The notes beneath the pieces are model-generated. The model saw only the letters and a program-made list of their open reading frames with translations, searched no databases and was not told the origin of the DNA. From assembly GCA_951406725.2 (NCBI GenBank), contig OX597831.1, positions 17,298,001 to 17,362,000 of the forward strand: DNA of 64,000 nt, written 5' to 3'. Each line of letters starts with the position of its first letter. The stretch's first letter is position 1. A program made the position numbers and the translations under genes. Of the stretch, positions 14,096 to 63,700 are shown in pieces. The DNA is from Octopus vulgaris (lineage: Eukaryota).

Positions 14096-17000
14096 CTGAA
14101 AAGAGAATAGTACAAAGTTTATATATATGTAATTTCAAACTCATTCGATTTGGGTTATACAAGTCTGTTGCTGTTCACAGTTGGGTCGTCTGAAAAGTTC
14201 ATTGTCTAAATATTAAGGAGTAATGCTAGAGTTGTGCCTTCTTGCTTTCAATGATTGGAACGGTATTTATTAATTACTGCATCGCTCTTTTAAAGCATAA
14301 CTGGCATCTGACTTTTTACAAAAACTTCGCAAAGTAGCAAGTACACACTTTCATGGATAACAGAGAGGGGTGTCTATAAATCAAATAACCAATGATTTTG
14401 GAATATCCCGTAAGAAATTCTGAATATTCTCCTCAAGGAACTTGGCACGACAGAAATTTCTCGTCTGTGTATCTCCGTTCTCTGACATGTGACCGAAAGC
14501 ACACCAGGCACATCAAGTCACGGGAAAATCCGATATTGATTGAAGCAGATCCACATGCATTCCTTGGACGTTGCCTTTATCACTTTGAACTAGAGAAAAT
14601 GACACAATACTTGCAGCGGAACAACCCTGCAATCCTACTCAGAAGAGAGCCAAGTGGTTTCATTTGCAGGGAGGTTGATTGACGAAGGCTGTTGGGATGC
14701 AAGGTAATATTGCCTACTTTCCAAACTGTCATAATGTCAACGGAAAATACTTTGCCAAATTCCAGAGGTAAGCAAACATGTCTATCCACACAAAACACTT
14801 ATGAAAATTAGGAAAATACAGCTAGAACAAACGTAATTTGTTTCGATGGCTGCTCAGGCTTTGAACTGGTAGATTACTCGACCTATTCTCTTGTTTTATA
14901 CCCATCTGACTATCAATCTATTCCCCCAACGTAACGAAAGCTATTTACTAGGGATCCTGTATCGCACTGATGGCGAAATGATATGCACCGTTGAACATTT
15001 TGTGCAACAGCGTTGAATCTTTTCCACCCATGGAATCCAAGCACTAAAACACCACCGGGAATATAAGTGACCTGCAATGCTTCACAATCCATTAGAGAAT
15101 GCACTCTGTGAACGTTTCAGTCAATCCTCGTATTTTCATTATTCTTGGCTAATGTTGCGATTTACAAGCAAATTTAGTGAAATAGTTCCTGATGACATTG
15201 AAAATGAATCTAAAACACCAGTAGAAGGATTACAGGAATTCAATGGAGATATCTCAGAGCAGTCAGTTCAGTGTGGTGCAAAATTACAAAGACACCGCTT
15301 AATCTCACTGTAGACGATGACTAATACGCTTATTCCTGTTTCAGTAGGACGTAGCGTACAAGATATGAACCAAAACATATGAGACCATACTACAGCTGCT
15401 GCAGATTTTAGATGCGTTTCTCGTCTTATATAAAAAAATATCCTATCCAACAGTAATTCCTGAAATAGAGTAAATAAACTTAGTTGTTTCCTTCAGGTGG
15501 ATAGCATATCGGTACATATAATACGAAAACATTGCTTTCGTATTATCGTGATATCAGGACTTTTAAAGCAGTGGAATCTAGTGCTGTTATCTTAAATGTT
15601 GTTGAACAATAAAACAAAAAATTGACGCAGTGGTCACTTATGAAATAACGTACCTCGTTAACCTTAGAAATGCTTTTAACCTGAAAACAGAAAAAAATAT
15701 ATTTCTTGAAAGTAAGTCCAACAACTTACATTCACAGAAATGCATGCGCGCAAAATTACACACACACACACACACACACGCACACAGAAATCCACAAATA
15801 CAGACACAAATACACACATACAGACACGCACAGATGCTGTTACACAACGAACTGACGAAAATACAGTCATGCACACACCGACATCTATAAAGATGGATAG
15901 AGTGAAGGATAGATATACAGACAGACAGGTAGGCAAGCAGAATGACAGATAGATAGATAGACAGATAGATAGATAGATAGATAGATAGATAGATAGATAC
16001 ATAATACATACATACATACATACATACATACATACATACATACATACATACATACATACATACATACATACATACATACATACATAGATTGATAGAGAGG
16101 AAGATACATATGAGATGTCAATCATTATGAAAAGGTACCACCTATTAGCATCATCAGCACAGAAGTAAGATCAGGCTAGAAAAGAGATTCATATCGCACA
16201 GTAGGTTTCGGAAAATATGGCTAAATGTAGAGAGAAAGTTGAGAAAGAATGGAGCCGGCTGAGCCAAGCCATCCCACCAGAAAATAGGGAGGGTCGCTTA
16301 ACGACCGTGGGCAAATTACTAATTTTCTTTCGATTATTTGTTCAAAAATGTTAACTTTATATATTTTCTGTAATCATTAACGGAAAAATGCATTCGAACT
16401 CATTTATGTTTGCCTGTCTTTGTACCGCCACTCCTTTGTGCTGCCCAATGTCGCAAATAAAGAAAATGAGTTTTTTTTTTGTACGTCGCGTGAACACATT
16501 GACAAACCTCTGCTGCGTAATTTATCTATACCAACATGTGGTAAGATATAGTCTTTTATATCTGTATTTGCAAAATAATTCGATATTAATTATACAAGGA
16601 TGTTGCTGTTCACAGGTGGGTCGTCGGAAAAGTTCATTGGCTAAATATTAAGGAGAAATGCTAGAGTTGTGAATACTTGCGTTCATTCTTTTGAACGGTA
16701 TTTATTAATTGCTGCATCGTTTTTTTCCCCCAAATTAATCGATGCATGATTGTTCAGAGATATTTCAATATGTTGCAAGTACAAATGTGTATGGATGGCA
16801 GACTGATTACTATAAATCGAACACTTAATGATATTAAAATATGCCGTGAAAAAAATTCTGAATAATCTCCCCAAGCTTGTCACGACAAAGATTTCTTTTC
16901 CATGTGTCTTCGTATTCTTACACCTGACCAAAAGCAAACTAGGCAGAACACGTCACGAGGAAATCTGATATTGTTTGAAGCAAGTGCAGTTGATTTCCTT

Positions 17001-60721: not shown

Positions 60722-63700
60722 CTGAAAACAAAAGCAAATGTATTTCTTGGAAAGAACATTCAACAATTTAGCATTTGCTGTATGTTCAAACATTCAGGGT
60801 ATTGATATGCACATACATCGTACCATACAAGTCCCAATATAAAAATTATTTAGTATACACTTTATGTCCATTCCTTATTAAAATAAAATTATAGGCTGTA
60901 TTTAATTATCTTAACGTAGCAATAACTCAGCGATTTGTGTTTGTTATAAAATATAAAATAAGTAAAAACCAACTGATTTTTATTCCAAAGAAATCTTGGT
61001 TTATGTCTCTGCCACTGAAATTGTCTATTTTCCCCTATCCATAAATGATAGATTCTAGATTCTACTTGACTTGATAAACTAGTCTATAAATTAAAAATAA
61101 CCGCACCCCACTAGTAAATCTAAATAACAAATATAATCCATGATAAGCAGTGTCTTCCTTTGAAACATCTCAGTTACAACTACGATGTTGTTGATGAAAC
61201 ATGTTCTTTGTCTATATAAGTATCCTCTTTGTGATTTTGGATAAAAGGAATACTATAGAAATGAATCCTTCGAATTTTACTAAATTGATGTAATGTTTGC
61301 ATTGTTCAATTAAATGGAGTCGCATGAAACGATCGTACTGCATTAACTCTGGATATCCTTGTTGCTTATTTTGATATGTATATATATATATATATATATA
61401 TATATATATATATATATATATATATATAAAATATATATATATATATATATATATTATATATATGATATATATATGTATGTGTGTGTGCATGTATATGTAT
61501 GGTGGTTGTTTAAACCTCATGCAGTGTCTGTCCACCACTTGAACTTAGACCTCAGAGGGAGGGGTTGATGCATCCTTTTAACTCCAAGAATTGTTTGAGA
61601 AGCCACGCAAATGTGTTGCATAACTGCTGTGGTCCACCAAGAGAATCAATTAAGTTCTTCGTCGATGTAAAATGTGTTTTGAAGGCTCCGTTAGATTTGC
61701 AGATAGCATGGCGTTAGATGCATTGACAAGTATGCACAGATACATAGACAGAGTAGTTAGTGGAGGTTCGATTCGAAAGCGTCCGCAAATGAGATTTTAG
61801 GCCATCAAAAGAAAAGCACGGTCTGACACAACTTGTACACAAAAATATGTTTTGGGATTTAATTCTCTCATTGATCGTAGCATATTTCTTTAAAGTTATT
61901 GGGAGTTTCGCACCGGTTATCCTGTTTCCTTCAAAAGCTTTCACTCAACGCCACATTTTCTTTCGGCATCCAGCTCGATCCGTAGTAAGGGATTTTCATC
62001 GCCTTTGTATCCATTCCAAGGGAATTGAAGATGGTCCTTATACAGGAGTCTTCAAGCAATTGTTACGTTTCCATTGAACGCGTCCTGAGCGTACGTCTAA
62101 GTGTCAGTTGACGAATAGGAAAATATCTTCCTCTCCCGTTTCAACCGCGGTACCGCAGACTGTACACTACAATATTTTCAGCCTTACATTTTACTATGAA
62201 AAAGGAAGTAAATCTGATCCCCACATCATTTTTCTTATATCATGCGCACCATGGGTTTTCAGAGGATATGCGGATTAGTTTCGGTTCACTCCAGGCTATT
62301 ATCAATAACAGTTTGGGTATGAGACGCGTGTTTGTCAAGTTAATGCCAGAAGTGGTTTGAGCTGCAAAAGTTCTTCTTCATTGGACAATGATGAAAACTC
62401 TTTGAAAACTGTTTGCAGGCCTCTAAATGGCTGGCACCAAGCTCTTCGTAAGATGTTATGTAGATTCTAAACTCAGCTTTCTCTGTCATACTAAATGCTA
62501 CATACGTCTCTTCGAAGCACTGCTGCAGACAGCAGAAGTGAACCAAAATGCTAAAACATAATGCCCATGGGCAGCAAAAACCACGTCAATCTCTGCCAAG
62601 CGGCTTTAGCTTCGTTACTTTGGCAACAATCAAGATACTTATAGATCGGACAACGTATTGTACTTATCAAAAAAATATTTAATTGTCAACAGATGGAGTT
62701 ATGTTTTAGTTGATATTATAGACATTGAATTGCACGGAACACGGCGGAAGCGCGGCATGGTAGTAATCTGATGACTGACAGAAGAAGGTATACATATATA
62801 TACTGTGAGAATCGCATGTTAATGTTTGTATTCATGTTAATCAATAATATGTAAGAAAGAAGGGAAGATGTATGTGCGTCCGTATGTGACGGGCGATTAG
62901 GTTTACTTCACCATTGCTAGATGCATTACTTAAGTTCTACAGATGGTTCTACGCTCTTTAGAATTTTCAGTTATGGAGTAAAAGACGTAATTGGACTTCT
63001 AGGACAAAAATTCAGATAAACCTTGTACGGAAACTGTTATGGACAAGGGATGTAACAAAGAGAAATTCATTGTCTACCATACACCGTAATATACGTGTGT
63101 GTGTATGAGTGTGTGTGTATGAGTGTATATGTGTGTGTGTGTGTGTATGTGTGAATCCAACCATAGCTCCTTGAGAAGTAGCATTCAGAAATTGATTGCA
63201 TTTTTTACAAAAATACAGCCTCTTTCCCCGGCCTTCGCACATCCTACAACAGTAACAGTCAAAAATTCAAACAATACATTTCCTGAAAACGTGTCCCTTC
63301 TGAATTCCGCTCAGTTTCCTCAAAGACATCTATATATACACTGGCGAAATCTTCTGTCGTTCCAATCACTTCGTTTCTCCAGACGCCAAATTAATATTTC
63401 TGCTATATATGTTTTTTTATATTTCTTCGAATATCATATTTCTCTGTCTACGGAGAAAACATTTACTACATATGTACGTGTATGTATATATATATATATA
63501 TATATATATATATATATATATATATATATATATATATATATATATATATATATATATATATATATATATATATATATATATATATATATATATATATATA
63601 TATATATATATATACGCATATATATATACGCATATATATATATATACATATATATGTGCATATATATTCATACATATATGTCCTGTTATTTTTATTATTA

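Follow-up and report, generated by a model that had tools for sequence, protein, structure and literature searches.

Microexons copied with the 3' ends of tandem genes for probably GPI-anchored proteins in Octopus vulgaris

The stretch analysed here, further called the window, comprises 64,000 nt of the Octopus vulgaris genome (assembly GCA_951406725.2, contig OX597831.1, positions 17,298,001 to 17,362,000 of the forward strand) and carries two genes, A and B, and one 3' fragment, C, of a tandem family of small predicted surface proteins. The family follows a five-part gene plan of a signal exon, two cysteine exons, a microexon and a hydrophobic tail exon, and five microexons lie in the window, two in gene A, two in gene B and one in fragment C, each inside its own homologous unit (U1 and U2 in gene A, U3 and U4 in gene B, U5 in C). 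A sixth homologous unit (U6) was found outside the window in gene D, a complete gene with a single 27-nt microexon located 14–28 kb outside the window, upstream of C. The models of A, B and D have canonical splice sites and open frames, and the predicted product of A, as of B, is about 112 residues long, with a signal-like start, a six-cysteine domain, a short spacer and a hydrophobic tail. In the explanation that we consider fairly probable as a whole, all five microexons descend from a single ancestral 27-nt exon in phase 0, which likely carries the attachment site of a glycosylphosphatidylinositol (GPI) anchor. The exons are as follows.

Gene A exon 1, 22972..23008, minus strand: 37 nt coding, signal-peptide-like
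Gene A exon 1, second copy, 22040..22076, minus strand: 37 nt, signal-peptide-like
Gene A exon 2, 20192..20291, minus strand: 100 nt, three Cys
Gene A exon 3, 18641..18725, minus strand: 85 nt, three Cys, ends in phase 0
Gene A proximal (extra) microexon, U2, 18081..18107, minus strand: 27 nt, KKPTTVKKP, without candidate omega site
Gene A distal microexon, U1, 15654..15680, minus strand: 27 nt, VKSISKVNE, candidate omega SIS
Gene A terminal exon, coding part, 14030..14095, minus strand: hydrophobic tail, predicted GPI signal
Gene B exon 1, 52854..52890, minus strand: 37 nt coding, signal-peptide-like
Gene B exon 2, 37257..37356, minus strand: 100 nt
Gene B exon 3, 33671..33755, minus strand: 85 nt
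Gene B proximal (extra) microexon, U4, 33091..33117, minus strand: 27 nt, NGITASAQT, keeps a possible omega ASA
Gene B distal microexon, U3, 30521..30553, minus strand: 33 nt, 11 residues, candidate omega SSS
Terminal-exon relic where units 4 and 3 join, 30920..30997, minus strand: coding end and start of the 3' untranslated region, acceptor deleted
Gene B terminal exon, coding part, 25605..25661, minus strand: hydrophobic tail
Fragment C microexon, U5, 60695..60721, minus strand: 27 nt, TENTSKSND, sister to the gene D unit
Fragment C terminal exon, 58796..58840, minus strand: intact acceptor, earlier stop shortens the tail to 14 residues

The initial annotation had placed five microexons of 27, 27, 33, 27 and 27 nt at these coordinates, with intact splice sites and at one shared position in homologous units, and all of this was confirmed. 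Each microexon lies on the minus strand in phase 0, is stop-free, has a length that is a multiple of three and is flanked by AG and GT, with a T-rich tract and CAG on its 5' side and a GTA donor on its 3' side. The units are 66–72% identical in pairs over 0.9–1.6 kb of aligned columns, and the microexons occupy the same columns of the unit alignment. Since only 9 sites on the minus strand of the window match a loose microexon pattern, and 5 of them are these microexons, the shared position is not due to chance. A single stalk containing all five was also proposed, which does not hold, because A and B have their own sets of exons 1–3 and their own terminal exons, and a single gene with five microexons is thereby excluded. 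Nor is there support for a modular system in which microexons build up the stalk: there are at most two per gene, the ground state of the family is one, and the gain is nine residues.

That ground state was deduced from the neighbourhood of the window. The tandem cluster comprises at least 26 six-cysteine paralogs and extends over at least 450 kb (C18, ~17.15–17.60 Mb) and includes recent block duplications, broken paralogs and orphan exons; a weak match at 17.998 Mb suggests that it reaches further. In 464 kb an exon-2 DNA profile gave 26 matches, 12 of them training sequences, and a microexon profile gave 12 matches (7 training sequences), of which A and B contribute two each, C one and each of 7 other exon-3 loci one. 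Exon-3 and microexon matches thus coincide at 9 loci, 7 of which have a single microexon of 24 or 27 nt (two of these seven look damaged at exon 3), the remaining two being A and B with two microexons each. The Octopus bimaculoides RefSeq gene model XP_052830372.1 (P0007), which resembles gene D most, has one segment of 9 residues at the microexon position, the exon borders having been placed from the protein alignment. One microexon in 7 of 9 loci and in XP_052830372.1 therefore indicates that a single microexon is the ground state.

The history of the doubling was approached through the units. In a tree of 719 gap-free columns U1 pairs with U2 (bootstrap 90), U3 with U4 (99) and U5 with U6 (74), while topologies that join units by position, distal with distal, are rejected by the approximately unbiased (AU) test with p values of 0.001–0.005 (one at p=0.0045). 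The intron-3 homology upstream of U1, U3 and U5 begins at profile positions 496, 155 and 323, respectively; the homology of unit 2 ends about 20 nt before the tail acceptor, and unit 4 ends in the acceptor-less tail-exon relic at 30997-30920. Within-gene grouping together with different breakpoints points to three separate duplications of the 3' end, which were probably independent. Their cause may be unequal crossing-over or a deletion-fusion of tandem gene copies, two routes with an identical outcome. Of the two terminal-exon copies in A and in B, the upstream one lost its acceptor, leaving two microexons in series, and in D/C both tail exons remain, with C left as an orphan fragment.

Alternatively, a single ancient 3'-end duplication could have occurred before A, B and D/C separated, and later gene conversion within each gene could have mimicked sister units. 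The internal branches are indeed short (0.02–0.05, as compared with 0.16–0.23 at the tips), all pairs of units are about equally alike at 66–72%, and all three genes are neighbours on the same strand. This scenario appears highly improbable to us nevertheless, given the rejection of the positional topologies and the three different breakpoints; besides, distal microexons resemble each other across genes (13–21 of 27 bases), which indicates that the exons have not been recently homogenised.

The initial annotation also described the microexons as carried on a duplicated ~2-kb intron unit. The transport on duplicated intron units was verified, but most of the long homology of the unit is a transposon fossil, as one decayed mariner element takes up about 0.95 kb in every unit. 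The remnants in the window are listed below.

Mariner remnant, unit 1 (last intron of gene A), 14183..15136, plus strand, antisense to the gene: internal deletion common to the units
Mariner remnant, unit 2, 16615..17571, plus strand: unit homology stops at ~16555, just before the would-be terminal-exon acceptor
Mariner remnant, unit 4, 31003..32312, plus strand: two pieces, 31003-31156 and 31571-32312
Mariner remnant, unit 5, 58923..60192, plus strand: broken by a younger repeat

A 1.3-kb piece of unit 1 compared with the genome matched dispersed repeats on many contigs (45 matches; 883 candidates, 40 scored), and eight dispersed loci share an element of 1.2–1.3 kb. Its copy at L045:1859-2911 (minus strand, contig C14) encodes an open reading frame (ORF) of 351 aa with the Pfam domains Transposase_1 (E=9e-20) and HTH_48, in agreement with the DDE domain and Mos1-type HTH of a mariner transposase, and the dispersed copies have similar ends, in keeping with the terminal inverted repeats of mariner. 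This transposase frame is open over 351 codons although the copies of the family are only 71–80% alike. A profile of the dispersed copies aligns to all six units, where a gap at profile positions ~890–1120 is common wherever both flanks survive. The units thus resemble Tc1/mariner elements in that they align to a dispersed copy with a transposase ORF and differ in being broken, internally deleted and duplicated passively with the intron: a single mariner inserted antisense into the ancestral last intron before the duplications and was then copied along with it. The divergence between units is about the same as that between units and dispersed copies (65–75% identity), so that the mariner insertion is likely to be little older than the duplications. 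A conserved functional 2-kb intron element was considered and rejected, the sequence being mostly mariner and Rfam giving 0 matches in the window.

As to the role of the microexon, the translations present, on inspection, an N-terminal signal peptide and a C-terminal hydrophobic tail, and the members of the family are probably GPI-anchored. Omega sites were sought by a hand-coded rule (a small residue at both omega and omega+2, Pro excluded at omega+1, 15–33 residues from the end), in which the omega residue set and the distance from the C-terminus are general background. The omega+1/+2 part follows the accessible text of PMC2119539. As originally predicted, a site compatible with the rule lies in the last microexon in every case, SIS in A, SSS in B and NTS in C, to which NGS in D can be added. 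By the same rule, skipping of the proximal microexon restores the ancestral spacer, skipping of the distal one leaves no candidate in A and ASA in B, and with both skipped the only candidates lie inside the cysteine domain. Because distal skipping costs A its omega sites, routine inclusion of the distal exon is favoured, with a modest length polymorphism possible; with the proximal microexon included, the stretch from the last cysteine to the anchor would be nine residues longer.

It was suggested initially that skipping could alter the stalk length or the anchor site without a frameshift, and the idea of a switch, possibly a neural one, was raised. In this scheme tissue-specific skipping would change the spacer length and move (B) or remove (A) the GPI site, and C would provide gene D with an alternative pair of last exons. 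The frame is kept in every case of skipping, as claimed; the site, in contrast, would be removed and not moved in A, and only in B does the proximal microexon offer an alternative omega (ASA). Splicing from D to C would likewise leave the frame open and supply NTS, neighbouring genes acquired their doubling separately, and several isoforms are annotated at a related locus of O. bimaculoides. Sister microexons agree in their interiors at only 11, 9 and 13 of 27 bases, as against a mean of 19–20 in gap-free intron windows, and so fall below 97–100% of such windows; however, they fall below only 76–92% of windows when internal indels are allowed, and with 8–24% of windows as divergent the difference is unremarkable. 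Phase 0 is explained by inheritance from a single ancestral exon, the tail of C is shortened and lacks a canonical poly(A) signal within 800 nt, and the switch was proposed from sequence alone.

Comparison with regulated neural microexons is also of little help to this scheme. The length limit of eMIC microexons is about 27 nt, and the octopus exons are similarly short and frame-preserving (four of five 27 nt, one 33 nt). According to the accessible part of bioRxiv 10.1101/2021.02.24.432780, the microexons dependent on eMIC and SRRM3/4 are neural, with UGC near the 3' splice site and a long AG exclusion zone. In the octopus locus UGC lies within 40 nt of the acceptor in only 2 of the 6 units, the nearest upstream AG is only 25–33 nt away, so that the AG-free zone is short (-25 to -33), and most genes of the subfamily contain the exon as a structural part. 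Altogether we regard a regulated switch as unlikely, and it is very doubtful that B switches anchor positions, A alternates between anchored and unanchored forms and D between two tails, so as to tune the display of a recognition repertoire.

The question remains whether the extra copies (U2, U4 and U5) are spliced in at all. When neutral evolution was simulated at the branch divergence measured, the chance of keeping AG, GT, frame and absence of stops was 0.32, 0.30 and 0.29 per extra copy, and the joint chance was 0.095 for U2 and U4 and 0.027 with U5; the retention of splice sites in the three extra copies is only suggestive of their use. If they were unused relics, splicing would lead from exon 3 straight to the distal microexon, and the ends of the extra copies would have stayed intact by accident. 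This possibility, which we judge quite improbable, agrees with the chance of about 0.3 for each single copy to look intact, with the strong divergence of the proximal microexons (9–13 of 27 bases identical to any other) and with the broken paralogs and orphan exons of the cluster. It is opposed by the joint chance of 0.027 for three copies, by the preservation of C at -3, A at +3 and T at +6 in all six units when only 33% of intron columns are invariant, and by the fact that the proximal and not the distal microexons are at the native distance from exon 3, with a full native intron.

Fragment C is considered separately. For its exons 1, 2 and 3 neither DNA nor protein profiles gave any match between 60.7 and 75 kb, an interval that on inspection consists of long interspersed nuclear element (LINE) and Tc1-like sequence, and in the 800 nt after its terminal exon neither AATAAA nor ATTAAA was found. 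A separate gene C was rejected, there being no exon 1–3 match in the 14 kb upstream of its unit, and C is probably a silent orphan 3' fragment.

Overall, the account that appears reasonably probable comprises an ancestral microexon with the GPI site, three 3'-end duplications, routine inclusion of the extra copies in A and B, where the second microexon would serve as a nine-residue spacer in most transcripts, and a silent C. Several points weigh against it. The splice sites of C are intact, which is not required of a silent relic, and the pairing of C with D has a support of only 74%; gene conversion could also yield the within-gene pairing of units. Without C, the neutral test has little force for A and B (p ~0.1), the GPI assignment rests on a hand-coded rule, and diverged extra microexons in other paralogs could escape the microexon profile. 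No annotated protein for A or B was obtained in protein database searches or in a representative search, in which 3 of 7 matches were unrelated repeat proteins and were dropped. Finally, among 24 read runs, none recorded as RNA, four were aligned, to 13300-22400 (gene A) only, and revealed no joints across gene A introns, which is neutral evidence; the same runs gave one repeat-derived joint (GT..AA) and one unspliced contig at 15591-15745.

Between A, B and D the domain exons show 55–62% identity, as compared with ~70% in introns, and the ratio of nonsynonymous to synonymous divergence (dN/dS) is ~0.9–1.3 (NG86). Nonsynonymous divergence exceeds intron divergence in 7 of 8 usable paralog pairs, significantly in 3, the pairs not being independent and the intron values from local alignment possibly biased low; two of ten pairs (I-M and M-O) were dropped owing to a frameshift in M. 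Across the cluster exons 2–3 diverge as fast as or faster than introns, cysteines excepted. This coding divergence would fit a fast-evolving recognition role.

The fold shared by RGM_N and neuritin is a three-helix, disulfide-bonded one. P0001, a fused model of neighbouring paralogs, passes the RGM_N (PF06535) cut-off over four repeats (37.9 versus 24.2 bits), and it alone does so, P0002, P0004, P0007 and four single-exon pieces remaining below. NRN1 was a weak feature match (0.78), the single-domain P0007 and two other octopus relatives gave no Pfam match at E 0.01, no solved-structure relative of P0001 was found by sequence, and the Atlas model of P0007 is of low confidence (pLDDT, predicted local distance difference test, 0.49) with no named match. 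The octopus family shares with RGM_N and neuritin/CPG15 (PF15056) a small six-cysteine module and a predicted GPI tail, and lacks the vWF-like domain of RGM.

In spacer regions, symmetric (phase 0-0) exons can be multiplied by tandem duplication, a general mechanism of which the octopus case is an ordinary example, of modest novelty: a frame-preserving exon was copied with its flanking introns and would lengthen a low-complexity linker. It differs in that the duplication is parallel in adjacent paralogs and takes in the 3' end as a whole, the acceptor of the upstream terminal exon being lost afterwards, and in that the duplicated exon is also the predicted omega-site exon. With the micro-exon genes (MEGs) of schistosomes the family has in common that it is an expanded, fast-evolving family of secreted or surface proteins, rich in transposons and with symmetrical exons of very small size, and no homology is claimed. 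In the accessible part of PMC4350168 the MEG coding regions are mostly microexons and exon skipping is documented; the octopus microexons, in contrast, account for only 16–18% of the coding sequence (54 of 342 nt in A, 60 of 339 nt in B), so that the defining feature of MEGs is absent. No published description of the locus was found; the supplements of 10.64898/2026.09.05.749416, which in its accessible part deals with fly microexons, could list octopus exons.

Some further observations concern the surroundings. Both copies of gene A exon 1 have a GT donor and the same phase and are possible alternative first exons, while copies of gene B exon 1, 91–95% identical, lie 100–120 kb outside the window before different second exons. 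Tail to tail with gene A there is a plus-strand paralog at 5769-11548, with exon 2 at ~5769-5865, exon 3 at ~10900-10985 and a hydrophobic tail exon at ~11438-11548, in which no microexon was seen. A second (left) subfamily seems to join exon 3 directly to a longer tail exon and aligns weakly to the microexon-bearing one (hhalign probability 16%, E 0.0016); its exon 2+3 modules begin and end in the same phase, so that serial splicing of modules from adjacent copies would be possible. Such a serial build is seen in P0001, with four modules, and in LOC128249887 of O. bimaculoides, which has three modules and several isoforms, owing either to read-through or to fused annotation. The following elements, named by ORF inspection, we take to be younger insertions.

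26900-29200, minus strand: non-long-terminal-repeat (non-LTR) element bearing reverse transcriptase (RT), splitting unit 3
37400-40000, plus strand: Penelope-like element in gene B intron 1
12182-12949, plus strand: LINE fragment
54100-55100, minus strand: Tc1-like fragment

In summary, A and B are expressed-looking genes that would have been missed by protein databases because of their exons of 24–33 nt. If skipping were regulated, it would represent a splice switch on the GPI site of a lineage-specific surface family, relevant to cephalopod and splicing specialists. The locus may be seen as a tandem array that adds exons by duplication of the 3' end with subsequent loss of the terminal-exon acceptor, a process which would be finished in A and B and unfinished in D/C, and whose duplication events are marked by the mariner fossil.

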